This document shows, one piece after another, positions 1 through 37,799 of a stretch of DNA of 64,000 bases. The stretch spans positions 15,055-79,054 of the forward strand of contig JAKAOF010000004.1 in the NCBI GenBank assembly GCA_021823345.1, written 5' to 3'. Both the position numbers and the translations under genes were made by a program. Position 1 is the stretch's first letter, and every line of letters begins with the position of its first letter. This stretch comes from Thermoplasmata archaeon. GTDB lineage: Archaea > Thermoplasmatota > Thermoplasmata > Lutacidiplasmatales > UBA184. Below the pieces are notes generated by a model, which searched no databases, was not told where the DNA came from, and worked only from the letters and a program-made list of their open reading frames with translations.

Positions 1-231
1 GGTAAGTTGGGCCGGCGGGAGGTGGGCGGGAGGCGCGGTCGCGGCCGGAGCCGGTCGAGGGGCCGCCCGAGGACGGCTTGCGGCGGTCGCCGGCGCGGGA
101 CGGGAAGGTGCGCGCGGGGCCGTCGGCCGGGGCAGCGCCTTTCCGCAGGTACTGCAGAACGCGCTCTCGTCGGGGTTCGTGCGGCCACAGCTGGCACAGA
201 CGGTTCCCGAGGGAGCGGCGTTAGCGATCAC
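1..231 (-). CDS. 5' fragment of a pilus-assembly ATPase with an N-terminal zinc ribbon and Pro-rich linker (gene runs off the left edge of the window)
   Basis: My own minus-strand translation from GTG 231..229 gives VIANAAPSGTVCASCGRTNPDESAFCSTCGKALPRPTAPRAPSRP... (CxxC...CxxC then Pro/Ala-rich). It is colinear with the N-terminus of the locus-2 ATPase (MMASCYNCGASIPPASRVCPHCNAP...). The GTG overlaps the TAG stop of the upstream gene (TAGTG), matching the coupling seen in locus 2. The ATPase identity is inferred from synteny only. Confidence 0.4.
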   Translation of the reverse strand, partial: MIANAAPSGTVCASCGRTNPDESAFCSTCGKALPRPTAPRAPSRPAPATAASRPRAAPRPAPAATAPPAHLPPAQLT

Positions 232-1040
232 TAGCTGCCTCCCTCGTCGGGCACGGGTTCGGGGGGGCGTTCGATCGCGCTCTGGAAGGACACGCGGAGC
301 AGAGCGTCCATCTGCAGGAGACGCTCGGAGATGACCTCGAAGTCCGAGGCGGTGGCCGAGAGGCAGCGATCGCATCCCGGGTCCCGGTTGCCCTGGGAGA
401 GGGCCTGCGCCTTATGTCGAAGGTCTTGGTCGAACGCGCTGAACCCCGAAACGAGGGTGCGGTTCATGGTGGGGAACATGGCCCGCGGGTTGTACGGGCA
501 GTTCGGGCAATCGAGATGCTTGATCGTACGGAGGATGGCCGCCCGCTCGTTGCGGAGGTGGCGGGCGATCTCGGCGGCGTTCTTGGGCCCGTTCACTCGG
601 ATGCTCGGGTCCGTGGAAAGGAGCGGCCCCGGGAACGCGCCGGGTCCGGAGGACATCGCATCGAGCTCGGCGATGACGCCGTCGACCTCCCCGTCCGGGA
701 AGACCAGTCCGGCGACATGGGGGCGTGGGGCCCGCAGGGAGAACTGTTCGATGAGCTTCGTCAGCGAGACCAGCATCTTGAGGAAGCGGACCGAATCCCC
801 GACGTATTGGCGCTCCATGGCCCCGGTGATCGTGATGCTGTCCACATAGGGTTCGGTCGAAAGGATGTTGGTCACGACGGCCATGCACTGCGAGTTGAGG
901 ACCCCCGAGGGCCCCTCGCACGCGGCGCATTTGAGTACCAAGTTCGTCGACCGTCCCTCGGACTTGAGCTCGTAGGAGAACTGGGGGAGATGGTTCGACC
1001 CCGGCCCTCGGTCTTCCTTAGATGGTTTTCCCTTCGTCAT
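231..1040 (-). CDS. Cys-rich conserved hypothetical protein (4 CxxC-type pairs); paralog of 33692..34702; leading cytoplasmic gene of pilus locus 1
   Basis: 269-aa ORF. The N-terminus FSYELKSEGRSTNLVLKCAACEGPSG aligns with FEYEVRTEGNSVNLIVKCESCEGPDG of 33692..34702. The C-terminal DCPNCPYNPRAMF...GCDRCL aligns with NCPNCAFNPKNMY...ECLRCL. ATGA start/stop overlap with the upstream gene. Normal amino-acid composition, not GC-artefact-like. Confidence 0.7.
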   Translation of the reverse strand: MTKGKPSKEDRGPGSNHLPQFSYELKSEGRSTNLVLKCAACEGPSGVLNSQCMAVVTNILSTEPYVDSITITGAMERQYVGDSVRFLKMLVSLTKLIEQFSLRAPRPHVAGLVFPDGEVDGVIAELDAMSSGPGAFPGPLLSTDPSIRVNGPKNAAEIARHLRNERAAILRTIKHLDCPNCPYNPRAMFPTMNRTLVSGFSAFDQDLRHKAQALSQGNRDPGCDRCLSATASDFEVISERLLQMDALLRVSFQSAIERPPEPVPDEGGS

Positions 1041-2782
1041 GCTGCTTCCCCCCTCCGCTGCTCCACGCTTCTCCAGATCACGAACACCACGACTCCCGCG
1101 ACCACGACCCCGATGGCGCCATACTCCAGGATCTGGAACGGGTCGGAGGCCTCCGGTGGGGAGGCTGTTTGGACGACCACCACCGTGGAGGTCGATGTTC
1201 GGGCCCCCGCGAAGGCGGATATCGTCACGGTGACCGAGTAGTTCGTGGAGAAGGAGAGTCCTCCGATCGACAGCGGACCGGGGCTCGCGGAGGAGAAGGA
1301 TTGCGGAGCGACCGGGTTGCCGCTCCCGGGGGTCAACGGCGCGATGTTGAGGGTGAGGCCCGTGAACCCGGGGATCTCACTGGCCACGGTCCAGTCGACG
1401 GAGATGCCGGCGGTGGAGGCCCCGACGGATGGAGCGATCGACGTGGCGGACACCACGGCCGTGGTCGGGGTAGGGATCCCAGTGTCCGGCGCCATGGTAA
1501 GCTCCACCGGGGAGCTCGAAAGCTGATACGCCTGACCGATGGCGAGCGTCGCCTCGTTGGCCGAGAAGGTGACGGTCTGTATGGTGCTCGAGGTCGACAA
1601 CTGCCGGTAGGCGGCGGAGTAGCTCTGGGGCATTCCCGGGTAAAGGTAGAACCAGCCCACCTGGTCGGTCGACCACGACACCTCGAAGTATCCAGGCGAC
1701 TCCTCGGCCAGGATCGCGCTCGTGGGCGCGGACGGGAACGTTGCGGACCACGTGACCCCGAAGGAGCTGCACCCCGAGCTTCCGGAGGCGTTGAGGTAGT
1801 TCACGCGCGCGCTCGAGAGCGTCAACACCTCGCAGCCGCTCGCCGAGGCGGAGATCGACTCCCCGTCGGAGAAGTAGTTGCTCGTGTTGGAATATTCCTG
1901 CTGGTGGGAGGCGACCGTGGCCGCGTAGAATCCCGAAACGCCGATGGCGAACATGTGAGAGCCGTCCGCGGAGACCACGGCGTCCCTCAGGCTGGTCGCG
2001 GGTCCCGGGTTGGGGGATCCCCCGAGGGGGTCCCAGACACCCGTGTAGCCGGCCGACTGGCCACCGGAACCTTGGTTCCCCGAGTAGACGAAGATCTGCG
2101 AATTGCCGTTCTCATCGTTCGATCCGACGACGAACCAGCTCCCGTCCTGGTCCATGGAGACGCTGACGAGGTTCTCCCCCGTCTCCACGTTGTAGAAGTG
2201 GAGGTTTGCCCCGGAGGCGGTCGTCGTGAAATAGGACACGTTGAACCCCGGAAGGCTCGAGTTGGGGTCCGTGAAGTGACCGATCACCACGAAGGCGTTC
2301 CCATCCTCGGAGAACTGGGCGTTGGTCACGAACGCCTTCACATGGGAGTTGTCCCCCAGGAAACCCTGGGCGGTCCAGAGCGGGGGGGCGTTGGACGGGC
2401 TCGAGATGGTGTAGAGGTAGACCGAGTTGTTGACCGTGATGAGTATCTCAGGGACCCCGGCCGGACCGGTACCGGACATCGAGACGGAACTGGCGTTGCC
2501 CGGCAGGGGCCAGCTCGAGATCAGGTTCCAGGGGGTCGTGGAGAACAGATAGGCATGGTCGAGGCTGGAGGTCGCGGTCACGTACTCGCCGTTCGGGGTC
2601 GTCGCGAGATGGGAGATGCCGGAACCGTCCGGAGTCGTGTAATTGTCGAGGGACGGGGTCGTCACGGCCGGGTGGATGGCCGGAGCGGCGTCCGGGATGG
2701 AGGCGGCCGTCGCGACCGACGAGGTCGAGCTGAGCAGCAGCGGAAGAAGGAGCGTGAGGGCGAGCAGGGGAAGCGCCCTCAT
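1037..2782 (-). CDS. Secreted Ser/Thr/Asn-rich surface protein with N-terminal signal peptide and C-terminal TM anchor; paralog of 34709..36628
   Basis: Start at the internal Met MRALPLLALTLLLPLLLSSTSSVATAAS (signal peptide), sharing ATGA overlap with the stop of the pilin gene. Many NxS/T sequons. C-terminal hydrophobic segment GAIGVVVAGVVVFVIW followed by RSVEQRRGEAA. Block TPNGEYVTATSSLDHAYLFS is homologous to AGYVTAVSSSDILYLFNS in the locus-2 protein. Confidence 0.7.
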   Translation of the reverse strand: MRALPLLALTLLLPLLLSSTSSVATAASIPDAAPAIHPAVTTPSLDNYTTPDGSGISHLATTPNGEYVTATSSLDHAYLFSTTPWNLISSWPLPGNASSVSMSGTGPAGVPEILITVNNSVYLYTISSPSNAPPLWTAQGFLGDNSHVKAFVTNAQFSEDGNAFVVIGHFTDPNSSLPGFNVSYFTTTASGANLHFYNVETGENLVSVSMDQDGSWFVVGSNDENGNSQIFVYSGNQGSGGQSAGYTGVWDPLGGSPNPGPATSLRDAVVSADGSHMFAIGVSGFYAATVASHQQEYSNTSNYFSDGESISASASGCEVLTLSSARVNYLNASGSSGCSSFGVTWSATFPSAPTSAILAEESPGYFEVSWSTDQVGWFYLYPGMPQSYSAAYRQLSTSSTIQTVTFSANEATLAIGQAYQLSSSPVELTMAPDTGIPTPTTAVVSATSIAPSVGASTAGISVDWTVASEIPGFTGLTLNIAPLTPGSGNPVAPQSFSSASPGPLSIGGLSFSTNYSVTVTISAFAGARTSTSTVVVVQTASPPEASDPFQILEYGAIGVVVAGVVVFVIWRSVEQRRGEAA

Positions 2783-3459
2783 GCCCACACCCCGAGCACG
2801 ACGGAGATCGGGCTCGCACCCCCGGCGGGGCCGGGGACGGTCTCGGACGAGGAATAGATGGTGCCCGTGGTCCCGGTCGCATCGAACCCCATGAACACGC
2901 ACGCGGAAGAGATGGTGCAGGGAGACACCGGAGTGGAAGCGTTCTGATATTCGAGGTAATACTCCGCGAAGGTCTGGGGGTTGAGGCTCACCGTCGATCC
3001 CATGGCAACCTGAGACGCGGTATTATTTATCACGTACCCCGCCCACCCCGGAGTGTCGAGGAGGTGCTCGAGGCTGGCCCGTGGGCCGGCCCCGGTCAAC
3101 GATTCGAGAAGGCTCAGGTGCAAGGCGACCAGCTGGGCCATGCTGTAGTCGTATACCGTACCCGTCTCCCAACCGGGGTTCAACGCCTGGCAGGGGTCGT
3201 TCGGGACGGGCGACCCCGAACTCCCCACGCAGAGCGTGGCGTTCGGGGCCGTGGCCGAAAGGAAGCTCTGAAGGGCATCGGCCGCGTAGGTCGTTCCCCC
3301 GAGGTTCCGCTGCTCGACGATCGGGCTCACGGAAACCATGGCGTACAGGAACAGCGTGGCCACGATGAGCAGGGGGATGAAGAGCACGACGTCAAAGGCG
3401 GCCACCTCACCCCGGCGACCCCGGCGGAACATCGACTTCCGACCGCTGATCCGCCGCAT
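2779..3459 (-). CDS. TadE-like type IV pilin (class III signal peptide)
   Basis: N-terminus MRRISGRKSMFRRGRRG|EVAAFDVVLFIPLLIVATLFLYAM: basic leader, Gly, then a TadE-like hydrophobic helix with acidic residues near the cleavage site. Homologous to the N-terminus of 36616..37182 (VHRRFRGRRGQVAIVDGIVF). Start could be the internal Met (3432). Confidence 0.65.
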   Translation of the reverse strand: MRRISGRKSMFRRGRRGEVAAFDVVLFIPLLIVATLFLYAMVSVSPIVEQRNLGGTTYAADALQSFLSATAPNATLCVGSSGSPVPNDPCQALNPGWETGTVYDYSMAQLVALHLSLLESLTGAGPRASLEHLLDTPGWAGYVINNTASQVAMGSTVSLNPQTFAEYYLEYQNASTPVSPCTISSACVFMGFDATGTTGTIYSSSETVPGPAGGASPISVVLGVWA

Positions 3460-3460
3460 G

Positions 3461-3964
3461 TCAGTCCCAGATCTCCACCATGAGCGTGGCTGTGTGATAC
3501 TCCCCGTAGGGAACCCCAGGGAACCAGATGTCCACCGTCGTCTCGGAGGTGACGAGGCCCTGGGTCAATCCGTTGAGGGTCTTGGGCGGCGCCCCGGTCT
3601 CGATGATCCGTGGTTGGTTCAGCCAGGCGTGGGGGTACGAAGAGACGTCGGTGATCACGACCCGGAAGTCGTACGCCGGGTGGAAATCGTAGGTGATGTT
3701 CGACGACGTCAGGTTGACCACCTTGAAGACGTCGAACACCCCGACCTCGCCCTGGTAGGTCAAGTTGGAATATCCCCGGAGGTCCTGGAGGAAGAGGCTC
3801 GCCTGGTCGGCGAAGGTCTCGTTCTGTTGGCGCTTCTCGAAGGTATTGAGGCCGGAGAAGAGGGCGGCGAAGAAAAGGAACAGGGCCGTGATCACGATCC
3901 AGGCCGCTGGTACCTCTTCGAGGAAACCGGCGACCCCCCGGCGTCCCATGCGGTGCGACATCAA
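3461..3964 (-). CDS. TadE-like type IV pilin (class III signal peptide)
   Basis: MMSHRMGRRG|VAGFLEEVPAAWIVITALFLFFAALF, close to the RSHRG|VAGFFEEFPVLIVVLAALLL N-terminus of 37173..37688. 167 aa with a globular C-terminal part. First gene of the locus-1 operon. Confidence 0.7.
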   Translation of the reverse strand: MMSHRMGRRGVAGFLEEVPAAWIVITALFLFFAALFSGLNTFEKRQQNETFADQASLFLQDLRGYSNLTYQGEVGVFDVFKVVNLTSSNITYDFHPAYDFRVVITDVSSYPHAWLNQPRIIETGAPPKTLNGLTQGLVTSETTVDIWFPGVPYGEYHTATLMVEIWD

Positions 3965-4127
3965 TGCTCGCGAAGAGACCGGTCCTCAGATAAGGCCTTC
4001 TTGTGCCCGCGAATTTCTCCTTGAGCGCTCACCGCCGGAGCTTTCGTCGGGAATCGACTCGGAGTCGATGGCGAAAGGCTTTTAGGTGGGCCCAGTGTGT
4101 GTCACAGCACCTCACGGGGTCATCAAC

Positions 4128-4685
4128 ATGCGTACGAGTGTTTGGCGGAACAATCGCCGGGGAGCCTTAGAAGGAGTGCCACTGTATCTGATCATCCTGA
4201 TCATCATCGCGGCCATCGTGGTCGTGATCGTGCTGGGATGGCTGGCTACCGTGCAACACCCGACGATCGGATCGGTCACGACGGTCGTAGCGGGGTCTAG
4301 CACGATGACCGTGAGCGGTAGTTTCACCTGCACCTCTACCTCGTACTGGTGCTTCACCCCGGTCAACTCGACGGGCGGTTGCCACTACATCTACAACCAG
4401 CCCACCACCGCCCCTGCGATCCAAGTGACGGTCCAGGACAATCACGGGAACAACCTGCAGGGCGCCACCGTCACCTTGACGGCGAGCGGCAGTCTCAACT
4501 TCACGGGTTCGAACATCGCCAACACCGGAACGAACGGCGTTGCCTCCTTCAGCCAGTTCTCCGGCTTCGTGGGCCCGAACACCCAGAGCGGGACGATCAC
4601 GGTCTCCGCCAACTACGCCGCGGGAGGAATCCAGAGCTCTCAGAACGGTGGGACGATCATCATCGATCCACCGGCGGGCTGCTGA
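4128..4685 (+). CDS. Prepilin-like secreted protein (class III signal peptide plus Ig-like/adhesin-like domain); paralog of 21970..22551
   Basis: Start at the in-frame ATG: MRTSVWRNNRRG|ALEGVPLYLIILIIIAAIVVVIVLGWL. The paralog has KRAALEGLPLYLIIMVVVAGVVIVILLSWL. Both end ...PP(A/Q)GC / IPPQC. TATA-like CTTTTAGG about 45 nt upstream. Confidence 0.65.
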   Translation: MRTSVWRNNRRGALEGVPLYLIILIIIAAIVVVIVLGWLATVQHPTIGSVTTVVAGSSTMTVSGSFTCTSTSYWCFTPVNSTGGCHYIYNQPTTAPAIQVTVQDNHGNNLQGATVTLTASGSLNFTGSNIANTGTNGVASFSQFSGFVGPNTQSGTITVSANYAAGGIQSSQNGGTIIIDPPAGC

Positions 4686-26904: not shown

Positions 26905-27792
26905 TCAGAGGAGCGACCGGCCGCACGCGAGACAGACCCGCTGCTGGGCATCCACGGGGTTCCCGCAGCTCGGACAGATGCGGCGAGGCGGGGCAAAGCC
27001 CGACCGGTCCATCGGAGGGTTGTTCTGGGACGCGGGCGGAAGGGACGGAGGGGCCTGGGGCGGCTGCACCACGGGCGAGCCGAAGGAGGCGGGAGGAGGG
27101 GAGGGCGAGGGGGCGTATTGGGGTTGAGCGGCATACTGTTGAGGAGGGGGGCTCGCCGACGCCGTGGGGGGGAGCATCGTCTGGGGCGGCGGATAGGAAC
27201 CCACCGGGGCGGGCGCAGCATCCCCGGGGGGGGCGGCGCTGTGTGCGATCGGGGCCGGTTGTGGTTGGGTTCCCGGGTACTGGGGTCCCGAGGTGGGGGA
27301 CCAGGTTCCCATCGGGGCTCCGGTCGGTGCGCCGAGGGGCGGAGGCCCGTCGGTGCCGGTCGCGGAGGGTTCGGCGGGCTTCGCTCCCGCCACCTGGCGC
27401 CAGATGAGGAAGAGGAGGAATCCCGGCAGCACTCCCCCGAGCAGGATCGCGATCAGGGACTGCTGGTGCATGTGGTGGAGGAACAGCGTGGAGGGGCCGG
27501 AGTCATCCGACATCATCCGGCGGGTGAATCCGGGGATGACGGAGAGCACGAGGAAGAGGTTGATCACGATCCCGAGGCACCAGACCACGAGCTCCATCCA
27601 GACGATGACGCTCCAGGAGGGGAAGGAACTCGACCCGGCGTTGACGAGGAGGGCAAGCAGCACCACGAACAGTGCCATGAACGCGAGGGCGATCCACCGC
27701 ACAAGGCGGGCCTTGCGCATGAACTCCTCCTTTTCCTCCCCGGCAGAGGGGGCGCGGGAGAACTCCTCAGGATATCCGGCCGGCGGCATCAT
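26905..27792 (-). CDS. Polytopic membrane protein with Pro-rich linker and C-terminal zinc ribbon; last gene of pilus locus 2
   Basis: Three hydrophobic helices (LVRWIALAFMALFVVLLALLV; WSVIVWMELVVWCLGIVINLFLVLSVIPGF; LIAILLGGVLPGFLLFLIW). Long P/Q/A-rich segment. C-terminus ICPSCGNPVDAQQRVCLACG. Start chosen at MMPPAGYPEE. Confidence 0.55.
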   Translation of the reverse strand: MMPPAGYPEEFSRAPSAGEEKEEFMRKARLVRWIALAFMALFVVLLALLVNAGSSSFPSWSVIVWMELVVWCLGIVINLFLVLSVIPGFTRRMMSDDSGPSTLFLHHMHQQSLIAILLGGVLPGFLLFLIWRQVAGAKPAEPSATGTDGPPPLGAPTGAPMGTWSPTSGPQYPGTQPQPAPIAHSAAPPGDAAPAPVGSYPPPQTMLPPTASASPPPQQYAAQPQYAPSPSPPPASFGSPVVQPPQAPPSLPPASQNNPPMDRSGFAPPRRICPSCGNPVDAQQRVCLACGRSLL

Positions 27793-27805
27793 AGCTGAGC
27801 CAGCC

Positions 27806-28381
27806 TCACGGGCAACTGGGCCACGCATACGTATATCCGGGCAAATAGATAAGGGGTAGGTACTCCGCCGCCCCATCGACCCACACTTCCTTCAGCGTGA
27901 GCGAGAACGGCATTCCGGCCGTGATGTAAAGGCAGCTCTGATCGATCGTCTGGAGCTGTTTGTAATCGAGGTAGGGAACCTTCGTCACGTTCTGGAAATC
28001 CGACCACTTGAGGAGATAGACGGGGTTCGAGAAGGAGCTCCAGCTGCTCACGTACCCGGCGGAGACGTTCGCCGCCACCAGGATGACGTCCCGGGTGAAC
28101 GCGAGGCTGTAGGGGATCGTGCGGTACGGGAACGGCGTGGCGCCGGCGTTCGCCGGGAGCGAGACGGAACCGGTCCCGTTGAACGAGAAGCTCTCCGTCA
28201 CGTTCCCGGAGAGTCCCTCGACCCGGTTGATGTGGCTCGAGATCGTGGTCACGACCGACTCCATCGCCAGGTTCACGCTGTAGCTCGAGGCATCGACGTC
28301 CATGACCGCCGTGACGGTGCTCACCATCGCGACCGCTGCGATGCTCGCCACAAAGATGGACATCACCCAGTCGAGCAGCAT
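27806..28381 (-). CDS. Membrane-anchored pilus-associated protein (N-terminal TM plus extracellular beta-rich domain; minor pilin or FlaF/G-like)
   Basis: Start at the internal Met MLLDWVMSIFVASIAAVAMVSTVTAV. Its ATG overlaps the upstream TAA (TAATG). NxS/T sequons. Sits in the pilin block of locus 2. Confidence 0.55.
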   Translation of the reverse strand: MLLDWVMSIFVASIAAVAMVSTVTAVMDVDASSYSVNLAMESVVTTISSHINRVEGLSGNVTESFSFNGTGSVSLPANAGATPFPYRTIPYSLAFTRDVILVAANVSAGYVSSWSSFSNPVYLLKWSDFQNVTKVPYLDYKQLQTIDQSCLYITAGMPFSLTLKEVWVDGAAEYLPLIYLPGYTYAWPSCP

Positions 28382-28989
28382 TAGAACGACGCCACCTCGA
28401 TGAAGTAGACCAGGGAGTCCCCCGAGGGGATCGGGGAGGGCGGGAGGGACGCGCAGCTGTACTCCCCCGCGGCCGAACCGGTGCCCGAGACCGTCCAGCA
28501 CTTGGTGAAGGAGAGGGTGCTCGAGCTCGTGAGGGTGTACCCGATCCACTGGCCCCGCCAGTGGGTGCCGCAGGAACCTCCGCTGGTGAGGTTCGTCATG
28601 GGGATGGGTCCGGTGCCACTGTCGACGGTCGCGTTGTAGGTGACCCCGCCGGCGAGGGCGTTCACGAAGTACGCGTTCCCGTCCACGTTCTGCGTCGAGG
28701 AGCAACCCCCGTAGAGCGGGCCCCCGATGAGGATGTACCCCGTGGCCTGCCCCGGGACCTGGAGCACGATGCGGGTCCCCGTGGCCCCGGAGAAGGCCTG
28801 GGTGACACTGCTCGAGATCTTGTCGATGGTGGTGCGGGCCTGGACCTGCTGCTGCTCGGAGTCGTAGTAGAGCGCGGCCGCGTAGATGATCGGAAGCATG
28901 ATCGCGAGGATGAGGACGATGATCGTGAGCTCGAGCGGCATCTCGATGACGCCGCGCCGGGACCGCGAAACCGTCGGCCGCCGTTTCAT
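28381..28989 (-). CDS. TadE-like type IV pilin (class III signal peptide)
   Basis: MKRRPTVSRSRRG|VIEMPLELTIIVLILAIMLPIIYAAALYY followed by a globular Ser/Thr/Gly-rich domain with Cys pairs. Confidence 0.65.
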   Translation of the reverse strand: MKRRPTVSRSRRGVIEMPLELTIIVLILAIMLPIIYAAALYYDSEQQQVQARTTIDKISSSVTQAFSGATGTRIVLQVPGQATGYILIGGPLYGGCSSTQNVDGNAYFVNALAGGVTYNATVDSGTGPIPMTNLTSGGSCGTHWRGQWIGYTLTSSSTLSFTKCWTVSGTGSAAGEYSCASLPPSPIPSGDSLVYFIEVASF

Positions 28990-29450
28990 CGGATCACCGT
29001 GCAGGCGGTGGACGCCTGTTCTGCGGACGGCGATCCCCCGAGGGAGGTCGCGGTGTACTGGGCGAGGACGCTCAGGGTCCCGGAGCTCGCATCCGGGGGG
29101 AGGACCGGGGCGATCGGCCCGAAACGGGCCGTCCCGTTCGCCACGGTCGAGCCCGAGAGCGAGAGCCCGAGGCCCGAGACGAGCACGGAGACCCCGGACA
29201 GGGGATGCCCCCGCTGGTCCATCGTGAAGGCGGTCAGCGCCTGGGACTTTCCGAGGAAGAAGAAGCAGGGACTGCTGGCGCCCGTCTGGTCGACGTACGC
29301 GTCGACGCTTCCCAGGTTCGAGCCCTGCGAGTAGGAGAGGTAGGTGTACATCCCCGCGGCGAATCCGCCCACGATGACGAGCGAGACGATGATCTCGAGG
29401 CCCATCCCCTCGAGCGCCCCCCGCCGATGGCCCGCGAACTTCCGTCGCAT
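28986..29450 (-). CDS. TadE-like type IV pilin (class III signal peptide)
   Basis: Only the C-terminal 154 codons of ORF 28986..30818 are coding: MRRKFAGHRRG|ALEGMGLEIIVSLVIVGGFAAGMYTYLSY. The rest of that ORF is an alternative frame of the FlaJ-like gene. Confidence 0.65.
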   Translation of the reverse strand: MRRKFAGHRRGALEGMGLEIIVSLVIVGGFAAGMYTYLSYSQGSNLGSVDAYVDQTGASSPCFFFLGKSQALTAFTMDQRGHPLSGVSVLVSGLGLSLSGSTVANGTARFGPIAPVLPPDASSGTLSVLAQYTATSLGGSPSAEQASTACTVIR

Positions 29451-29455
29451 CGGTT

Positions 29456-31576
29456 TCACGCCCCGTTCGAAGCCAGGAGGGCCACCCCGAATATGGCGGC
29501 CACCACGTAGATGAGACTGGAGATCCACAGGGTGGTCCAGAGCGCTCCGAGGTACCGGACCCGGTCCCCGCTCCATTCGACCCCGGTGGCGAAGTAAAGG
29601 ACGATGAACGTGATCTCGATGAGGTAGACGCCCATCACCAGGAAGAACACCGGAGAGGGCACGATGAGGGCGCCGTTCGCGAGCACGCTCGACAGGAGGA
29701 GGTAGAGCGCTCCCGTGATCCCGATGACCACGGGGGTGAAGAACATGACCGAGCCGCGCATCATGCCGGTCGTCCCCTTGAGCGAGGTCCGGATGTTCTG
29801 GTCGGTGTTCCGGAGCTCCTTGAGGAACTCGGCCATCGGAAGGACGGTCTCGGCGATGGCCTCGGGACCCTTCTTCGAGGCCTCGAGGAGGGCCCGCATG
29901 GCGACCTTCATCGGCCGGGAGGGGTACTGGTCCATGACGCCCGGGCCGCGGGTCGATCCGAAGAGGACCTGCTCGGGGGTCTGGCCCGAGAGCTGCATGA
30001 CGTAGAGGATGTGGTTGAAGAACTTCCCCGACTCGGTGCCCTTCGCCCCTTCGGCCGCCTGGCGGATGGCGTTGTTGAGCGCCACGCCCTCCCCCATCTG
30101 GCTGGCGACCTGGAAGAAGGTGTCGGGGAACTCCTGCTCGAGGTGATAGAGCGCGCGGTGACGCTTCTCGAGGAAGTGGATCCGCAGGAACGCCACCACC
30201 GAAAGCGCAACGCTGACGCCCAGCACGAGGAAGGCGGTCCACGTCTCCTGGAGCACCGCCCCCGCGTACGCGTTGAAGTACCCGAGCCCCGCAAAGATCC
30301 CGATGGAGGCGATCCCGCCCCCGATCAACGCGCCGACCAAGGCGGCCTTGGGGAGCGCCCATTCCTCCCGCCGGTTGCCCTGGAGCACGCGGGCGGGGTC
30401 GAGGGTACCGGGCCGCTTGTTCAGGATCTGTACCGCATAGATGTAGGCGATGAGGGGAAAGACCACGGTCATGATCGTGATGAATCCCACGTTCGTGGCC
30501 AGGAACTCGCTCGAGGAGACCGGGCTCGCCGAGCTGCTCCCGCCCCCGGAGAGGGAGATCGTCCCCCCCAGGTTGGCCAGGAAGATCATCGGCATCATCG
30601 CTCCGATGACCATCGGGAGGAGCACCCCGAGCCCGAAGAAGATCGTGGTGGGGCCAGAGAGCGAGGCGGCGAACTCGTCGATCTTCCGGCGCGTGCCGGA
30701 CAGGATGATATCGTGGGCCTTCTCCAAGTGCCGGGCGCGCCCCTCGGGGGACTTCTCCGACACCCCCATCTTGAGCGCCTGGAGCGAGCGCATGAAGTCC
30801 TCGTTCCAGTTCCCCCATTCGTTGGCGAAGGCCATGTAGGAACGCTCGAGGGTCGGCTGCTTGCGCGTCACGGTGTCCCAGTGGATCTTCCCGAGCGCCT
30901 CCCCGAGGTTGCCTCCGACGTTCTCCGCGGAGAACTGGACGGCCTGGTGAAGACTGGGGTTGAGCCGCAGCGACATGGCCATGTAATGGATGGCCTCGGG
31001 GGCGCGCCCCAGCGTCTGGATGCGCAGGCGGCGCGCCAGCATGCCGGGGTAGTTGTAGATGTACAGGTAGAGCATGAGCGGAACGAAGAGGACCGACAGC
31101 AGCAAGAGGACGACGAAGGCCGACATGAGCACCGGCGTGGCCAGGAGGAGCCCGATGACGACGGCGGCCATGGCGATCATGACGAGCACGAGCGTGCCCA
31201 CGGCGGCGTAGTGGATCTCCGTGGGGGTGACCTCGAGGCCGGCGAAGTAGATCTCCCGCTGGAAGCGGCGGCGGGTGATGAGCTCCTCGAGCGAGTCGAG
31301 TCGCTTCTGGAGCCGTTCGAGCTTGCGTTCCTCGCGGTCGCGCACGGCGGCCGAGGGCATTTCGATGAGCACGCGGCGGTTGAACTCTTCCTCCTGCTGA
31401 CGGAGGTTCAGCCGTACCTTCTCCCGCTGCTCCTCGAGCTTCTCCTGGCGACGGGAGGGATTGCCGAGCGAGATGAAGATCCCGCCGAGGAACCGGGAGT
31501 AGTTCTCGAACCAGGCCCCCGACTTCCCCTCGTGGACCGCCTTGAACTCTGCGGCGTGGTCGGGATCAGCCGCCAT
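29456..31576 (-). CDS. FlaJ/TadC-like polytopic membrane platform protein of the type IV pilus/archaellum family
   Basis: 706 aa. Cytoplasmic N-terminal coiled/charged domain, then multiple TM helix bundles. Position directly downstream of and overlapping (11 nt) the FlaI-like ATPase is diagnostic of the platform protein. Confidence 0.8.
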   Translation of the reverse strand: MAADPDHAAEFKAVHEGKSGAWFENYSRFLGGIFISLGNPSRRQEKLEEQREKVRLNLRQQEEEFNRRVLIEMPSAAVRDREERKLERLQKRLDSLEELITRRRFQREIYFAGLEVTPTEIHYAAVGTLVLVMIAMAAVVIGLLLATPVLMSAFVVLLLLSVLFVPLMLYLYIYNYPGMLARRLRIQTLGRAPEAIHYMAMSLRLNPSLHQAVQFSAENVGGNLGEALGKIHWDTVTRKQPTLERSYMAFANEWGNWNEDFMRSLQALKMGVSEKSPEGRARHLEKAHDIILSGTRRKIDEFAASLSGPTTIFFGLGVLLPMVIGAMMPMIFLANLGGTISLSGGGSSSASPVSSSEFLATNVGFITIMTVVFPLIAYIYAVQILNKRPGTLDPARVLQGNRREEWALPKAALVGALIGGGIASIGIFAGLGYFNAYAGAVLQETWTAFLVLGVSVALSVVAFLRIHFLEKRHRALYHLEQEFPDTFFQVASQMGEGVALNNAIRQAAEGAKGTESGKFFNHILYVMQLSGQTPEQVLFGSTRGPGVMDQYPSRPMKVAMRALLEASKKGPEAIAETVLPMAEFLKELRNTDQNIRTSLKGTTGMMRGSVMFFTPVVIGITGALYLLLSSVLANGALIVPSPVFFLVMGVYLIEITFIVLYFATGVEWSGDRVRYLGALWTTLWISSLIYVVAAIFGVALLASNGA

Positions 31577-33695
31577 GGCCCGTGGCCCACCCCTTGAGGG
31601 ACTCCTTCAACCAAGCCTCCCACTGAGAAAGGACCGAGGCGTACACCCCGCGCTTGGTCCCGCCCTCGGTGGCGCGCTCCATGATGTCCCAGAAGGCGGC
31701 GTTCGACTTGCCGACCCACTCGGCGCTCACGAGCTCGGGGCGCTTGGCACGTCGCGAAAGCTCGACGAGACGCTCCCGGTAGGTCGCGCGGAGCTGGATC
31801 TGCTCGAGGGCCTCCTCGTATCGGATCCCCCAGGAGTCGGCGATGTGCTTGATGCGTTCAGAACCCTCGAGATAGGCCGCCGTTGCCTTGAGGGTGTCCG
31901 TCGCCTCGTCATAGACGAGCAGTTGACGGAAGGTGCCCGGCTCGCGGGCCGTCTTCGAGAGCTCGCTCACCTCCATGATCCGGCGCTGCTGGTTCCGCAC
32001 GGAGCCCCCGGGCGAGGTCAGCCCCGCCACCACGACGATGTCCGTGGCCTGGAAGCTCACGGCCGGGATGCCGATGTCGTGGACCACCCGCTCGAAGACG
32101 GCCTTGGCCGTGTTGCCGTGGATGGTCCCGAGCACGGAGCTCCCCGCGGTACCTGCCCGCATGGCCTCGTAGAGCGTCCGCGCCTCCTCGCCGCGCACCT
32201 CCCCGAGCACGATGGCACTTTCCCCCAGCCGGAGGGAGACCTTGAGCGCCTCGTTGGCGGTCATCTCGACCCCCTGGCCCCCGACCGCCGACCGGGTGAA
32301 CAGCGTCTGGACCTTGTAGCCGAGCTCCCGCATCTCGGCGCTGGGGAGCTCCAGCGTGTCCTCGATGGTGAGGATGCGCTGGTTCTTCGGGAACTCGAGC
32401 ATGAGGGCGCCCGTGAGGGAGGTCTTCCCGGCGCCTCGAGGACCGGCCACGAGGATCGTGGAGCGTCCATCGATGAGGAAGTTGAGGAGCCCGGCCGTGA
32501 GCGGGTTGATGGAGTTCGAGCTCATGAGCTTGAGGAGCGTCCACGGGTCGGTCGCGTGACGGCGCAGGGCCATGGCGATCCCGTGGGGGGACAGCGGCTT
32601 GCCGATGGCGGTGACCCGGATGTTGTATTCGCGGAGGTCCGTCTCGAGCACCGGCATCGCCTCCGAGAACGGCTTTCCGCTGTCGAGCAAGAGCCGGGAG
32701 AGGAGCGCCTCCGCCTCCTCGTCGGTGACCGTCACATTGGTGATGCACTTGTCCCCGACCGCGCCCGAGGCGAATCCGCCGATCCGGAGGTGGATGGGGT
32801 TCTCCGAGGCGGGAGCGTCGATGTACAGGTCTTGCAGGTGGGGATCGGAAAGGAGGATCTCCAGGGCCCCGAGCCCGACGAGGTGCCGGGTGAGGATCTC
32901 GGCAAGTTCGCCGAACCGCTGGACCCGTGATGCCGCGGACCCGGAGAGCTGGATCCCCGTCTCGCGGGCGACGCGCTGCATGAGCCGCTGGGCCATCTCC
33001 CGGACCACCTGCTTCGTGTGCGAGAGGTTCTGCAGGGCGAGGCGCTTCGGGTAGTATTCCATCAGCTCATCCCTCGTGAGGTGGAGCAGCTCGACCTCGT
33101 CCTTGCTGAGCTTGTAGTCCGCGATCTCGAGATGATAGAGGGTATCGATCTCGTTGGGGATGTGGTAGATCGTGACCTTGCTCGCCCCGAGGTTGTAGGT
33201 GGTGAGCTTGTCCCCTTTCTCGGGGGGATGCGGGTCGACCCAGCATCCGGAGAACCCAGGGCGTGTGAGGGTGCTCCGCCGTAGCGTGTTGGTCAGGTCG
33301 AGATTGAATGCCCGGGGGACCGCATCGAGGTTCTTCAGGATCCCGGCGAGGACCCCGGGACGCTCCTCCACCGGGAGCGCCATCGGCGAGGCCAGGACGA
33401 GCATCTTCGTCGCATTGGCGCTGGTCCAGGGAAGGGGAGCGTACGGACCGATACCGCCCGCCCCCGGTGCCTGGGGGTTCGGGACGGGGAGGGCCCAGGG
33501 ATTGCCGCCAATCCCGGCGGTGGCGGGGAAGAGGGGGCGGGTCGGAGGCGGAGGAAAGGGAAACGCCGACTCGGTCGGGGAGGACTCGAAGGCGTTCGAG
33601 GTGGCCAGGGGGAAGGCGATGGGGGCATTGCAGTGGGGGCAGACCCGGCTCGCCGGCGGGATCGAGGCACCGCAGTTGTAGCAGGAGGCCATCAT
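31566..33695 (-). CDS. FlaI/TadA/VirB11-family secretion ATPase with N-terminal zinc ribbon and Pro-rich linker
   Basis: Start at MMASCYNCGASIPPASRVCPHCNAP (ATGA overlap with the upstream stop). Walker A VAGPRGAGKTSLTGALMLEF. Walker B/His-box AIVLGEVRGEEARTLYEAMRAGTAGSSVLGTIHGN. 710 aa, larger than typical FlaI because of the N-terminal extension. Confidence 0.85.
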   Translation of the reverse strand: MMASCYNCGASIPPASRVCPHCNAPIAFPLATSNAFESSPTESAFPFPPPPTRPLFPATAGIGGNPWALPVPNPQAPGAGGIGPYAPLPWTSANATKMLVLASPMALPVEERPGVLAGILKNLDAVPRAFNLDLTNTLRRSTLTRPGFSGCWVDPHPPEKGDKLTTYNLGASKVTIYHIPNEIDTLYHLEIADYKLSKDEVELLHLTRDELMEYYPKRLALQNLSHTKQVVREMAQRLMQRVARETGIQLSGSAASRVQRFGELAEILTRHLVGLGALEILLSDPHLQDLYIDAPASENPIHLRIGGFASGAVGDKCITNVTVTDEEAEALLSRLLLDSGKPFSEAMPVLETDLREYNIRVTAIGKPLSPHGIAMALRRHATDPWTLLKLMSSNSINPLTAGLLNFLIDGRSTILVAGPRGAGKTSLTGALMLEFPKNQRILTIEDTLELPSAEMRELGYKVQTLFTRSAVGGQGVEMTANEALKVSLRLGESAIVLGEVRGEEARTLYEAMRAGTAGSSVLGTIHGNTAKAVFERVVHDIGIPAVSFQATDIVVVAGLTSPGGSVRNQQRRIMEVSELSKTAREPGTFRQLLVYDEATDTLKATAAYLEGSERIKHIADSWGIRYEEALEQIQLRATYRERLVELSRRAKRPELVSAEWVGKSNAAFWDIMERATEGGTKRGVYASVLSQWEAWLKESLKGWATGHGG

Positions 33696-34702
33696 GGCGC
33701 AGGTGTCCCTCCCGCGGTGGCGGCGGCCCGGCGTCCCGCGGACTTGGACACGGTGGAAACGATCTCCCCCACGTGCTGGTTCAACAGCTCGAACTCGCTC
33801 GTGGACATCCCGAGGCACCGCAGGCACTCCTTCTCGGGTCGGCCCTGCTGAAGCTGGGCCACCTTGCCCCGGAAACTGGGCAGGAAATGATCGAGACCGA
33901 CCTTGAGCAGGTCATTGAGCTCGAGGTACATGTTCTTGGGGTTGAAGGCGCAGTTCGGACAATTGAGATACCGGAGCTTTCGGACGAAGGCCTGCGGATT
34001 GGACCGGATGCGCTTCGCCCGCTCCTCCAAGGGTTCTTCCGGGGAAACGGCGGGCGCCGGGGCCGGGCCGGATGGAGCATTCGGGGACGGACGGAACGCC
34101 GGGTTCGCTCCGGGGGGAGCATAGTAGCCCGGGGGGTTCGGCATGCCCGGTTGCGGGACGGCGTTTGCCGGGGGAGGGAACTGCCCGTAGGGGCGCTGCG
34201 GGGGAGGGGTCGGCGGAGCCGGGGCGGGCTGGGGCGGCGGTTGGTTCTCCCGTTCGGCCTCCTCCTCCGCCTGGCGCGTGCGTTCCTCTTCCGCTTGCCG
34301 CTCGAGCACCTGGACGGTGTCCTCGAGGTTCCCATCGGGAATGGCGACCCCGTCCACGAAAGGCACCGGGGGTCGGGCCGCCATCTGTTCGAGCAGCTTG
34401 TCGAGCTGGAAGAGCTGCCGGAGCGCCTCCACCGTCGAGCCCGTGTACTGTCGCATCACCTTGCCGGTGATGGTGATGAGGTCGACGTAGTACTCGTTGG
34501 TCATCGCCTGCATGATGGCGGCCCGGCAGTAGGGATCTGCGATGCCGTCCGGGCCCTCGCAGGACTCGCACTTCACGATGAGGTTGACCGAATTGCCTTC
34601 GGTCCTCACCTCGTACTCGAAGGGGGGTGGAGTGATCGGCTCGGCCGGAAGTTCCGGAGGCGCCTGAGGGTTCGTTCGGGGAGCCGGATTGGAGGACTTC
34701 AT
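33692..34702 (-). CDS. Cys-rich conserved hypothetical protein; paralog of 231..1040; first cytoplasmic gene before the pilus ATPase in locus 2
   Basis: 336 aa with the same Cys blocks as 231..1040 (KCESCEG, PYC, NCPNC, ECLRC). Carries an extra Glu/Ala/Pro-rich insertion (RQAEEERTRQAEEEAERENQPPPQPAPAPP). Confidence 0.7.
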   Translation of the reverse strand: MKSSNPAPRTNPQAPPELPAEPITPPPFEYEVRTEGNSVNLIVKCESCEGPDGIADPYCRAAIMQAMTNEYYVDLITITGKVMRQYTGSTVEALRQLFQLDKLLEQMAARPPVPFVDGVAIPDGNLEDTVQVLERQAEEERTRQAEEEAERENQPPPQPAPAPPTPPPQRPYGQFPPPANAVPQPGMPNPPGYYAPPGANPAFRPSPNAPSGPAPAPAVSPEEPLEERAKRIRSNPQAFVRKLRYLNCPNCAFNPKNMYLELNDLLKVGLDHFLPSFRGKVAQLQQGRPEKECLRCLGMSTSEFELLNQHVGEIVSTVSKSAGRRAAATAGGTPAP

Positions 34703-34708: not shown

Positions 34709-36628
34709 CTAAGCCCCGCCGAAGCCGGGCGGTAGCTTGGTGGAGGTGGACCGGCGGCTCTTGGTCTTCTTCGAGGTTCCCCGGGCCCGCTTGCCGAAGA
34801 GGCTCCCCGTTCCGCCCCGGCCGGAGCCTTCCTCGGTGGCTGCCCGCTTCTCGGGGAGGGTCATCACCATGGCGAGCCCGGTGAAGAGGAACCCCGCGGA
34901 GAGCACGCCTGCGAACACCGGATAGCTCCAGGCGAAGGGGTCCGGAGAGGGAGGCGGGGGGAAGGTCGTCACGTTGAGCTCCGCGAACGAGGAGAACAGC
35001 CCCCACCAGGTCTCCACGGTCACCTGCACGAGGTAGGTCTGGTCGGCATGGAGGCCGGTCATGTTGAGGTAGCTCTGCGAAGCGGGAAGGGCCCCGTTGG
35101 CCTGGGGTCCGTCGGCCGGAGAGAGCGTGAGATAGGCGACCGGGGAACCGGGGAGCGCAAGGAGGTCGGTCGGACTCCAGGTCAACAGGAAGCTGTTCGA
35201 GGTGACCTTGGAGGCCGAGAGCATCACGGTGGGCGGCGGGGAGGGGCCGTAGTCGAAGATGACGTCCAGGTAGCCTTCCGCACTACCGCCCCGGGCACTC
35301 ATCCCGACCGCGGTGACGACCAGGTTCGAGGAGCTCGAGGCCGAGAGCGCCGTGGACGTGAGCTGGACTGTCCGGTACGGGACCGGGTTACCCACGGGGT
35401 AGCCAGGGACGTAGAAGTACGCCACCGTGCTTCCCGAGGAACTGGCGCTCACGTACTCCCCGTACGAGGCATTGGACGGGTTGAGGGAGAGGTAGAGCAT
35501 CGGGTAGGTGCCGGTGGTCATGCTCCATATCGGCTGCTCGTATCCGTCGGGAGCCGGGGCGGAAGAGTAGTTGAACCCATAGATGGTGTTCCCCCCGCCG
35601 TCGACGGCGAGGCGAGAGGCATTGTAGCTAAAGGACGCCAACTGGCTCCCGGCAAAGGGAGACCCCGGGTTCACGTTGGTGTCGTTCTCCGCGACCGTCG
35701 CGCGGACGTTCGCGGCCTCGTCGATCCAATAGCCGTCCGAACCCACCTGGATGACGGTGCTCCCGTCCGGGGACACCAGGGCCTGGGTCAGGGTCCCCGA
35801 CGGAGGGCTCGTCTCTTGCTTGAGCGGCGGCGGGGACCCGGAGTACTTCTCCGCGACCACGTAGGTGTTGATCCCGTCTTGGAAGGCGAAGAGGAGGTAG
35901 CTCCCGTCGTTGGTCATGCTGAGATCGATCGTGCTCATCGAAGACCCGGAGCCGGAGGATTGCGAGTAGTTCCAAAGTTCCACGCCGGAGATGCCATCAA
36001 GATAGCTGAGCCACACTCCGTAGTCGGAGGTGGAGGTGCCGCTCACCTCGTACGTGCAGGCCACCGCGACCACCTGGGCGGAGCCCGAGATGGCGATCGA
36101 ACCCACCTGGAGGCTCGTGATGTTGTAGCCCGCGGCGTGCCCCCCGTACTTGGCCAGGATCTCGTTGGCGGGGCTGTACGACCAGAGGGGGGTCGCGTTC
36201 GGATAGGCATAGGCGTAGGCGGTGCCGCCGACACCGATCATCACGTAGCTCGAGGTGCCGACCTTCCCGTTGATGACGGGGGAGGCCGCCGAGATGGCCA
36301 GCGTGCCCCAGTCGACGTTGGTCCCCAGCTGCCACATGGCCTGCGGGTTGTTGGAGGAGCTGTTGAAGAGGTAGAGGATGTCCGAGGAGGAGACCGCGGT
36401 CACATATCCTGCGTTCCCCGAGACCTCCACATCCTTGACATCCGAGGTCCCCACGGCGTAGGTCCATCCAGAGGGAAGCGCGGGGCTCGATGCCGGATGG
36501 CGATGGGGGACCGAGGCGGTCGGAGCGTGGGCCCCGCTCGCTCGAGCGTCCACCGTAGCGATGCCGCTAATCACGAGGGAGATCAATACCGCGACGGCGA
36601 CGACTGGGACGTTCCTCAGGTGTTCCAT
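34709..36628 (-). CDS. Secreted Ser/Thr-rich surface protein with signal peptide, FN3/Ig-like C-terminal region and C-terminal TM anchor; paralog of 1037..2782
   Basis: Start at MEHLRNVPVVAVAVLISLVISGIATVDARA. C-terminal TM SYPVFAGVLSAGFLFTGLAMVM plus a basic tail. Same position relative to the pilins and the Cys-rich gene as its locus-1 paralog. Confidence 0.7.
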   Translation of the reverse strand: MEHLRNVPVVAVAVLISLVISGIATVDARASGAHAPTASVPHRHPASSPALPSGWTYAVGTSDVKDVEVSGNAGYVTAVSSSDILYLFNSSSNNPQAMWQLGTNVDWGTLAISAASPVINGKVGTSSYVMIGVGGTAYAYAYPNATPLWSYSPANEILAKYGGHAAGYNITSLQVGSIAISGSAQVVAVACTYEVSGTSTSDYGVWLSYLDGISGVELWNYSQSSGSGSSMSTIDLSMTNDGSYLLFAFQDGINTYVVAEKYSGSPPPLKQETSPPSGTLTQALVSPDGSTVIQVGSDGYWIDEAANVRATVAENDTNVNPGSPFAGSQLASFSYNASRLAVDGGGNTIYGFNYSSAPAPDGYEQPIWSMTTGTYPMLYLSLNPSNASYGEYVSASSSGSTVAYFYVPGYPVGNPVPYRTVQLTSTALSASSSSNLVVTAVGMSARGGSAEGYLDVIFDYGPSPPPTVMLSASKVTSNSFLLTWSPTDLLALPGSPVAYLTLSPADGPQANGALPASQSYLNMTGLHADQTYLVQVTVETWWGLFSSFAELNVTTFPPPPSPDPFAWSYPVFAGVLSAGFLFTGLAMVMTLPEKRAATEEGSGRGGTGSLFGKRARGTSKKTKSRRSTSTKLPPGFGGA

Positions 36629-37182
36629 AGTGCGAGTGTGACCCCGATCGGACCGTTCCATCCCGGAGGAGAAGGTAGGCCGATCTGCTGCACATACAAG
36701 TCTTGGGGGGAATATGTAGATTGCGCCCCCATTTCGAGGTTTGCACCGGCGTGGGAGGCCGGCGAAATGACCGTGAGGTTGAAGTACGCGAACGTGCCGC
36801 GGGTCAAGTTCTCGAGCTCCCAGTACAGTGCCCACCCCATGGCACCGGTCCCCATGAGGAGCTTGGGGGTGGTCTGGCCCCCGGCGATGAGGTAGACCGC
36901 CTCCGTGAGAAGGCGGGCCCCGGCCTGGTCCTGCTCGGTGACCGTACCCGAGTGCGTCGGGAACTTCGACAGCGGGAAGGTGGACTCGAGCATCACGTTC
37001 AGGGTCGAGGACGAGTAGGCTTGGCCGGTCGAGTTCTGGCCCGGGGTGGAGACCGGGGCCAGGAAGACGTCCATGAGGAAGAAGAAGGCGAGGAGCAAGA
37101 GCGAGAGGAAGACGATCCCGTCGACGATCGCGACCTGGCCCCGCCGGCCCCGGAACCGGCGGTGGACGGAATTCAGCTCCAC
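36616..37182 (-). CDS. TadE-like type IV pilin (class III signal peptide)
   Basis: In-frame GTG start giving VELNSVHRRFRGRRG|QVAIVDGIVFLSLLLLAFFFLMDVFL, homologous to the locus-1 pilin 2779..3459. Overlaps the upstream stop (CTGA). Confidence 0.6.
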   Translation of the reverse strand: MELNSVHRRFRGRRGQVAIVDGIVFLSLLLLAFFFLMDVFLAPVSTPGQNSTGQAYSSSTLNVMLESTFPLSKFPTHSGTVTEQDQAGARLLTEAVYLIAGGQTTPKLLMGTGAMGWALYWELENLTRGTFAYFNLTVISPASHAGANLEMGAQSTYSPQDLYVQQIGLPSPPGWNGPIGVTLALWNT

Positions 37183-37688
37183 ACGCTCACCACCACGAGG
37201 GCGTCGTGGTATTCCTGGTCCGTCACGAAGATCGTGACGGGGCTCTGCGCCACGAAGATCCCGTTGGATAGCCGATATCCCGGCGGGGGGATGCAGGGGG
37301 TCGGCGTGCCCGTCGAGTAGCTCTGTTGGCAACTGTCCACCGTGCGGTTGTAATGGATATGGAACGGGGAGAGGTCGATGATCTGCACCTCGTACCCGCT
37401 CGGGGGATGCAGATCGTACGACACATTGGCGTACGTCAGGTTCGCGATCTTGGAGGACTGGAAGAGCCCCTTCTGGTTCTCGTAGGTGAGGTTCTGATAT
37501 CCCAGCACCGCCCCCAGCAGGGTCTCGGCCTGCTGGGAGAACGCCGCGCTCTGCTGCTTCTGGGAGAGCGTCTCGAAGGCGCCGACCGCAGTGGCCAAGA
37601 ACAGCAACAGCGCTGCGAGGACCACGATGAGCACGGGGAACTCTTCGAAGAACCCCGCGACCCCCCGGTGGGACCGTCTGAATCTCAC
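37173..37688 (-). CDS. TadE-like type IV pilin (class III signal peptide)
   Basis: In-frame GTG start giving VRFRRSHRG|VAGFFEEFPVLIVVLAALLLFLATAVGAFETL, nearly identical in its N-terminus to locus-1 pilin 3461..3964. The ORF's first Met (37793) would give an implausibly long leader. Confidence 0.6.
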   Translation of the reverse strand: MRFRRSHRGVAGFFEEFPVLIVVLAALLLFLATAVGAFETLSQKQQSAAFSQQAETLLGAVLGYQNLTYENQKGLFQSSKIANLTYANVSYDLHPPSGYEVQIIDLSPFHIHYNRTVDSCQQSYSTGTPTPCIPPPGYRLSNGIFVAQSPVTIFVTDQEYHDALVVVSVWS

Positions 37689-37799
37689 GTCAGAAGTATG
37701 GGCGGCCCCGTCCTTAAGGTTTGCCAGAATTCCGCGGCGAACGACCTCGACGGGAGTTCTCCTACCCACCCCGGTCCTGCCTTCCGGGAGCACGGGTCG

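Follow-up and report, generated by a model that had tools for sequence, protein, structure and literature searches.

Two paralogous cysteine-rich proteins of a Thermoplasmata archaeon as probable accessory subunits of type IV pilus-like ATPases

Archaeal type IV pilus-like machines combine a conserved ATPase-platform core with lineage-specific accessories, most of which are uncharacterised. In the 64,000-nucleotide stretch of a Thermoplasmata archaeon that we analysed (assembly GCA_021823345.1, contig JAKAOF010000004.1, positions 15,055 to 79,054; hereafter the window), two loci of this kind each carry, ahead of the ATPase gene, a minus-strand gene for a cysteine-rich protein (231..1040 in locus 1 and 33692..34702 in locus 2). 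What does this protein, here called the module, do for the machine beside which it is encoded? A preliminary description of the window had proposed a stoichiometric, possibly metal-binding, accessory or regulatory subunit of the pilus ATPase, and conserved adjacency and overlap, N-terminal fusions and co-divergence all agree with that proposal. We put at about 0.65 the probability that each module serves the FlaI/TadA-like ATPase of its own locus as a dedicated accessory subunit in the cytoplasm, in effect a separately encoded N-terminal domain of that ATPase.

The window is GC-rich, and spurious long open reading frames overlap both module genes in other frames; the minus-strand frames of 231..1040 and 33692..34702 are taken as the real genes because their homologs are conserved. 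Both start with ATG and encode proteins of 269 and 336 aa, respectively. Their N-terminal halves are 44% identical over 109 residues (BLASTP, E 1e-32) and their C-terminal halves 34% identical over 85 residues (E 2e-17), bearing out the proposed paralogy, coordinates included. Each protein contains exactly seven cysteines, all conserved between the two and arranged as three CxxC motifs and one lone cysteine. One CxxC and the lone residue belong to the N-domain (C38, C41 and C52 in the 269-aa protein; C45, C48 and C59 in the 336-aa protein), the other two CxxC motifs to the C-domain (C178, C181, C223 and C226; C248, C251, C293 and C296). The conserved cysteine motifs first noticed are therefore genuine, but the original count of four conserved pairs is not. 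Neither paralog has a Walker A motif or a transmembrane segment (maximum Kyte-Doolittle mean over 19 residues below 1.0), in line with the earlier statement that P-loop and membrane span are lacking, and the absence of a signal peptide from the module places it in the cytoplasm. Both are mildly acidic (isoelectric point 5.3-6.2). In the 336-aa paralog about 70 residues of low-complexity, Glu/Pro-rich sequence are inserted between the two domains. Among paralogs of the locus-2 type in general this insert measures 70-115 aa and is first Glu-rich, then Pro-rich (residues ~135-225 in the window copy); it varies in length and sequence among the orthologs P0002, P0004 and P0007 and is missing from short family members. 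A protein identical to the 269-aa paralog is encoded on other contigs, for example L005, and L001-L004 and L013 have orthologs of the 336-aa paralog with unchanged gene order.

At both loci the module gene runs into the ATPase gene. The locus-2 module ends with TGA (33694..33692), which overlaps the ATG of the ATPase (33695..33693) as ATGA; in locus 1 the stop TAG (233..231) and a GTG (231..229) have G231 in common, as TAGTG. The locus-2 ATPase (31566..33695, minus strand; 709 aa counted from the overlapping ATG) matches Pfam T2SSE with E 6.3e-21, and in NCBIfam the TadA and FlaI models score best, under the cut-offs of those models. Weak zinc-ribbon matches at residues 2-25 are followed by a Pro-rich linker and, from about residue 124, the ATPase core. 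In locus 1 only the first ~77 codons of the ATPase gene lie in the window (1..231, minus strand); the GTG frame encodes CxxC-x14-CxxC and then a Pro-rich stretch, resembling the N-terminus of the locus-2 ATPase, before it exits. On contig L005, whose module is identical, this GTG frame continues in-frame into a T2SSE ATPase, the start of which had been placed 88 codons too late by the gene caller. The overlap with the ATPase start codon, claimed earlier for both loci, is accordingly real, and L005 confirms that the locus-1 ATPase lies beyond the window edge.

This arrangement extends well outside the window. The core of the window ATPase served as tblastn query on 20 related loci from about five divergent lineages: those with orthologs of either window paralog, a third type from Thermoplasmata, and two clades with modules of 214 aa (~20% identity to the window proteins) and 181 aa. 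A T2SSE ATPase gene follows directly downstream on the same strand in 20 out of 20, down to ~20% module identity, so that the linkage to pilus ATPases expected of a motor component is found in other genomes; one of them, L020, carries module and ATPase as a truncated fusion. Stop and start codons overlap as ATGA in window locus 2, L001 and L008, as TAGTG in locus 1 and L005 and as TGATG in L011, and by 11 nt in L018. Identity to the window pair drops in parallel for module and ATPase (84/93, 48-50/66, 40/58, 33/42 and 25/30%, respectively), as would be the case for two genes that are passed on and diverge together. Each of the paralogous loci retains its own copy of the module, also in another metagenome-assembled genome (MAG).

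The most direct link is provided by gene fusions. At least six clusters defined at 50% identity (P0045, P0062, P0063, P0070, P0071 and P0109, plus the fragments P0107 and P0074) contain T2SSE ATPase proteins of 750-830 aa in which a complete module forms residues ~2-200. The ATPase portions share 42-48% identity with the window ATPase over its residues ~124-704, and the fused module therefore occupies the position of the zinc ribbon and Pro-rich linker in the window protein. The genes of P0062 and P0071 are followed by one for a large membrane protein, an order seen at L021 and L023, two fusion loci additional to the 20. Standalone modules 53-61% identical to a fused module exist, one of which overlaps a T2SSE gene, so the fission or fusion must be recent. 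We considered whether the fusions could be frameshift artefacts merging overlapping genes, and rejected this on the grounds that at least six distinct clusters are involved and that P0062 and P0071 recur in several independent assemblies.

Obligatory adjacency, stop/start overlap, co-divergence and repeated N-terminal fusion together lead us to propose that the module works bound to the ATPase. The partnership is well supported by comparative genomics, and physical binding is what these gene-level data suggest. The same data bear on a different proposal, namely that the module is a zinc-finger protein that binds nucleic acid and regulates the pilus operon transcriptionally or translationally, rather than a motor subunit. 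A small, Cys-rich, cytoplasmic protein encoded within the operon would suit such a role. It would hardly, though, be fused repeatedly to the N-terminus of the ATPase, and the stop/start coupling implies amounts like those of an abundant structural ATPase. The acidic isoelectric point also argues against it, and no helix-turn-helix or known DNA-binding domain was found in Pfam, NCBIfam or scans of family members. We regard an operon regulator as very improbable.

How widespread is the module, and is it known under another name? A word-indexed search of 5.8 billion proteins recovered only six close relatives. When 1.84 billion cluster representatives were searched exhaustively with a HMMER profile, 122 proteins were found at E<=1e-3 (52 at E<=1e-10), most of them 170-215 aa long and matching both halves of the profile. 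Every organism-labelled member is annotated as a 'hypothetical protein', and the label is always that of a Thermoplasmata or Candidatus Thermoplasmatota MAG. Within a species-representative genome collection, queried with a narrower alignment, five loci were detected, all in 'Thermoplasmata archaeon' MAGs; one of these five contigs holds both paralogs ~34 kb apart, as in the window, which accordingly derives from an uncultured Thermoplasmata lineage. On present databases the family thus appears restricted to Thermoplasmatota. Because the 122-representative family has invariant cysteine columns, its pattern is more than chance, and both window proteins align over both family domains, in keeping with the proposed two-domain architecture.

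Neither window paralog matches Pfam or NCBIfam at E<=1. Nothing meaningful emerged from Pfam scans of 51 individual members, NCBIfam, PHROGs or PADLOC, nothing below E 0.35 from a profile search of PDB sequences, and no match from tblastn against plasmids. A recurring weak match to DUF7351 (3 of the 51 members, best E 0.002) was disregarded. The earlier remark that the protein resembles nothing recognisable among FlaC-H, TadZ, UpsX or AapX agrees with these searches and with the lack of a specific fold match, and homology to an enzyme family unrelated to pili was not seen in any of the Pfam, NCBIfam, PHROGs, PADLOC, PDB and fold searches. The module is thus a family without a curated model and without recognisable fold relatives. 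It does not belong to the T2SSE/FlaI/TadA ATPases (PF00437), having no Walker A motif and no Pfam or NCBIfam match, nor, without a P-loop or a library match, to the KaiC/FlaH-like or TadZ/CpaE (ParA/MinD-like) ATPases.

An alignment of 128 sequences resolves eight conserved cysteine columns, C-x16-CxxC-x10-C in the N-domain and CxxC-x41-CxxC in the C-domain, as well as conserved P185, Y79 and R103. All eight cysteines are present in 93 of the 128 sequences, and the C-domain set (C5-C8), with fixed CxxC spacing, in 125. The N-domain set (C1-C4) has been lost independently in several lineages: all four are missing from seven members, five others retain just the second and fourth, and in the window clade a phenylalanine replaces the first, so that both window proteins keep seven of the eight family cysteines. 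From this pattern of loss we conclude that there are two separate, independent tetracysteine sites, one obligatory and one optional, and not a single eight-cysteine cluster; the N-domain site, judging from the alignment, is ancestral but dispensable.

With only five sequences, AlphaFold2 produced a poor model (predicted local distance difference test score, pLDDT, 68.7); a confident two-domain model of the 269-aa paralog was obtained from the 128-sequence alignment (pLDDT 88.7, predicted template modelling score 0.81). The N-domain (residues 21-101) has a beta-beta-alpha-beta-beta-alpha order; after it come a clade-specific insert (~105-150) and a C-domain built of helices (151-257). In the secondary structure of the model, CPNC falls in a link joining two helices, and the second CxxC of the C-domain opens the last long helix. 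The almost invariant CxxC...CxxC set in a cytoplasmic protein makes Zn2+ binding the most plausible function of the C-domain site, most likely in a structural capacity. The site differs from a classical zinc ribbon (DZR, Zn_Ribbon_1, Zn_ribbon_3), in which two CxxC knuckles sit 10-20 residues apart on beta hairpins: the median spacing in the module is 41 residues, the knuckles are flanked by helices in the model, and no Pfam match to these families was obtained for the module, unlike for the N-terminus of the adjacent ATPase.

The cysteines could also be read without metal. In such a reading the module is a domain held together by intramolecular disulfides, which does no more than raise the stability of the ATPase complex; disulfides have been suggested for the Cys-rich N-termini of subclade 4F ATPases (Makarova et al., 2016), and the members that retain only C2 and C4 of the N-site are compatible with a single disulfide. 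Yet the module is cytoplasmic, with neither signal peptide nor transmembrane segment, and four cysteines conserved together as two CxxC motifs are the classical signature of metal ligands. In the cytoplasm, disulfides are abundant mainly in hyperthermophilic crenarchaea. We consider the disulfide explanation improbable.

Another possibility keeps the module as a partner of the ATPase but makes it a redox sensor, in which an iron-sulfur (Fe-S) cluster, a rubredoxin-like iron or reversible disulfides let oxygen or redox state switch pilus assembly. That the eight conserved cysteines make up two sites, and that the N-site varies as an optional sensory function might, fits this idea, and MshEN, which binds cyclic di-GMP, is a precedent for an N-terminal sensor domain on a type IV pilus ATPase. 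Conversely, a CxxC...CxxC set with 41 residues between its halves, placed at helix ends, is more typical of structural zinc; the module has no match to an Fe-S or rubredoxin family in Pfam, NCBIfam or the member scans, and the loci contain no Fe-S maturation genes. A redox sensor in this sense seems unlikely to us. Put more broadly, the module might be a metal- or redox-sensing input domain (Fe-S, rubredoxin-like iron or a zinc/thiol switch) that attaches reversibly to the hexameric motor and switches assembly on or off. This is a doubtful proposition at present; if true, each pilus system would be controlled separately through its own paralog, and the module would represent a new class of type IV pilus motor regulator, found only in uncultured Thermoplasmatota and pluggable onto a KaiC-like ATPase.

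How, then, would a dedicated ATPase subunit act? The stop/start overlaps would lead to module and ATPase being made in similar amounts, and in the fused relatives one module is fixed to each ATPase chain, so that a 1:1 stoichiometry is probable. With one module per chain, a hexameric motor would carry six of them on its N-terminal, membrane-facing side. N-terminal add-ons of type IV filament ATPases dock or regulate the motor: GspE N1E binds GspL, MshEN its nucleotide ligand, and the FlaI N-terminus contacts FlaX/FlaH. By analogy, the module is predicted to dock the ATPase to the membrane platform or to other locus-specific partners, or to gate its activity, and a docking or regulatory role is the most likely one. 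One further fusion is consistent with an adaptor that recruits proteins to the motor. P0083 (L024, 2382-4307) joins a module, a ~230-aa Lys/Glu-rich coiled coil and a KaiC-like ATPase domain in one protein, and the KaiC-like FlaH is a known partner of FlaI. By their protein accession numbers, P0083 and the module-T2SSE fusion P0109 appear to come from the same Thermoplasmatota MAG. The L024 contig ends just after the P0083 gene.

Some observations weigh against the accessory-subunit reading. Fold searches with the module returned no specific or informative homolog, and the adaptor or regulator role therefore rests on analogy. The N-site of the window clade consists of only three cysteines. In the L018/L019 clade, module and ATPase occur without an adjacent platform gene, which means that the partner of the module need not be the platform, and also that the module-ATPase linkage is tighter than the ATPase-platform linkage. 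Finally, the published proposal for Cys-rich ATPase N-termini invokes disulfides and not metal (Makarova et al., 2016).

The ATPases of the two window loci are themselves unusual at their N-termini, both opening with a zinc ribbon (CxxC-x13/14-CxxC) and a Pro-rich linker of ~100 aa (33320-33695 and 1-231, minus strand; likewise in L001 and L005). ATPases beside modules of other clades (L008, L011 and L018) do not have this extension, which is confined to the clade with the largest module. It may, as a speculation, be an element that captures the separate module. Zinc ribbons also occur in other proteins of these loci: the distal end of locus 2 (26905-27876, minus strand) encodes a membrane protein of 323 aa whose tail is Pro-rich and whose C-terminus forms a zinc ribbon (CPSCGNPVDAQQRVCLACG), and in the distant loci L008 and L009 a double-zinc-ribbon (DZR) protein is encoded a few genes downstream of the ATPase.

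Upstream of each module lies a gene whose product, a large surface protein, carries a signal peptide and is anchored by a transmembrane segment at the C-terminus. The locus-1 gene (1037..2902, minus strand) overlaps the module ATG with its stop codon (ATGA at 1040..1037), and its true start is probably an internal ATG giving 581 aa, as called in L005. The locus-2 gene (34709..36835, minus strand) encodes a protein with an fn3-like region (Pfam E 3.5e-05, just below cut-off) and stops 6 nt upstream of the module start. The proteins encoded by the two preceding genes measure 580-620 aa. The position of the module between this gene and the ATPase is as first described, but the term 'secreted' needs revision: with a C-terminal anchor in addition to the signal peptide, these proteins are surface-anchored or S-layer-like and not merely secreted.

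Directly downstream of the locus-2 ATPase, and overlapping its stop codon, a polytopic membrane protein of 706 aa is encoded (29456..31576, minus strand). It has no direct Pfam match and is related (E 2e-16) to a 511-aa protein of L008 that carries a faint T2SSF match; on this basis we take it to be the presumed TadC/FlaJ-like platform protein. Candidate pilins are encoded on both sides. Upstream of the locus-2 surface-protein gene are two overlapping small reading frames (36616..37332 and 37173..37793, minus strand), found at the same positions in L001-L004, whose products begin with basic residues and continue with a hydrophobic helix, similar to a class III signal peptide. The locus-1 counterparts (2779..3459 and 3461..3964, minus strand) were recognised from their translations and from the L005 gene calls. 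These small upstream genes are putative pilin genes, and further small pilin-like genes lie downstream of the platform gene in locus 2 (27806..29455, minus strand; e.g. 28381..28989, MKRRPTVSRSRRGVIEMPLELTIIVLILAI...), where L001-L004 have four small genes at the matching position. An ATPase, a membrane protein and small class III-like proteins together make both regions look like archaeal type IV pilus-like loci, with the platform and pilin assignments being putative.

The wider surroundings differ between loci. Divergently beside locus 1, a gene on the plus strand (4715-9349) encodes a 1544-aa Ser/Gly/Thr/Asn-rich protein with an N-terminal transmembrane or signal segment and no Pfam match; the pilin-like gene next to it (4086-4685, plus strand) shows a weak Big_1 signal, and both are conserved in L005. 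Genes for a HAD-family hydrolase and valyl-tRNA synthetase flank locus 2 (37800-41119, minus strand) in the same order as in L001-L004, and this conserved flanking order identifies locus 2 as a stable chromosomal locus and no obvious mobile island. No tRNA or Rfam element was found within the window. Outside it, the module-ATPase pair of the 181-aa clade (L018/L019, 7001-9356) is preceded by three very large Big_9/cadherin-like surface proteins, and at the fused P0071 locus (L021/L022, 1439-7362) a HerA/DUF87-like ATPase is encoded directly after a 688-aa membrane protein. In the 214-aa clade (L008-L011, 2157-5698) a conserved pair divergently flanks the module-ATPase-platform operon, consisting of a 959-aa AAA_16/TPR (MalT-like STAND) protein and a small Arf/Ras/Roc-type GTPase, perhaps serving together as regulators of this pilus locus.

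One accessory family of these machines is now defined; it comprises ~120 clusters and lacks both a curated model and a fold that is solved or can be recognised. The data speak for gene fission and fusion at the N-terminal end of the ATPase, and the gene-fusion and gene-order evidence for the partnership is unusually clean, yielding a testable hypothesis of a zinc-clasped, detachable N-terminal domain as well as an annotation rule for hundreds of 'hypothetical proteins'. The restriction of the zinc ribbon and linker to the largest-module clade may inform how motors recruit their partners. The advance is incremental and holds no conceptual surprise, as lineage-specific cytoplasmic accessories predicted to bind metal, and N-terminal Cys-rich ATPase extensions, are a kind of thing already known.

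Bacterial ATPases of the GspE/PilB type contain a tetracysteine, zinc-binding C_M subdomain that is thought to be structural. The module resembles it in tying a CxxC...CxxC site, in its case a putative metal site, to a type IV filament ATPase. In contrast to C_M, which is an insertion inside the C-terminal ATPase domain, the module is a separate helical domain, acting in trans or placed N-terminally, and no homology between the two was detectable in Pfam, PDB profile or fold searches. As an add-on at the ATPase N-terminus the module is also comparable to GspE N1E, MshEN and the FlaI N-terminus, which couple the hexamer to the platform or to signals, but it differs from them in fold and sequence, with no T2SSE_N or other Pfam match and no fold match.

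Within archaea, the nearest description is that of Makarova, Koonin and Albers (Makarova et al., 2016; PMC4858521), who reported Cys-rich N-terminal regions on subclade 4F ATPases (arCOG01818, MA1299-like) and defined no family for them. Their 4F branch includes the two Thermoplasmata genomes then available, Mx1201 and BRNA1, and 4F loci often carry an S-layer-like protein (Makarova et al., 2016). Our module shares with the 4F region its character as an additional Cys-rich domain, N-terminal to a FlaI-like ATPase in its fused relatives, and with 4F loci that a surface or S-layer-like protein gene lies beside it. It differs from the MA1299-like region in being a separate gene in the window, a comparison made by description and position. 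No methanogen-labelled protein is among the 122 profile matches, all of which are Thermoplasmatota-labelled or unlabelled MAG proteins, and the fused matches belong to sparsely populated MAG clusters; for these two reasons the relation to the MA1299 region is probably remote. A literature search on MA1299 and on Cys-rich or zinc partners of archaeal type IV pilus ATPases gave nothing relevant beyond this paper. The suggestion that such a component may be previously undescribed stands as regards a curated family, but has to yield to the Cys-rich 4F N-termini and the Cys-rich pilus-locus proteins already on record.

The latter are the Cys-rich cytoplasmic proteins of other archaeal type IV pilus loci, namely arCOG05056 (Methanococci, clade 1), the Zn-ribbon proteins arCOG06883 and arCOG07264, to which can be added the coiled-coil arCOG07564 of halobacterial 4F loci (Makarova et al., 2016). 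Like the module, they are cytoplasmic, predicted to be metal-binding or regulatory, and encoded in type IV pilus loci; unlike it, they come from other lineages, have other architectures as far as described, and are not reported as fused to the ATPase, a distinction drawn from their descriptions. A similar design is seen in HP0958/FlgZ of Helicobacter, a coiled-coil hairpin with a Zn ribbon (cited in Makarova et al., 2016): as predicted for the module, a helical hairpin or bundle is combined with a tetracysteine zinc site in an accessory of a filament machine.

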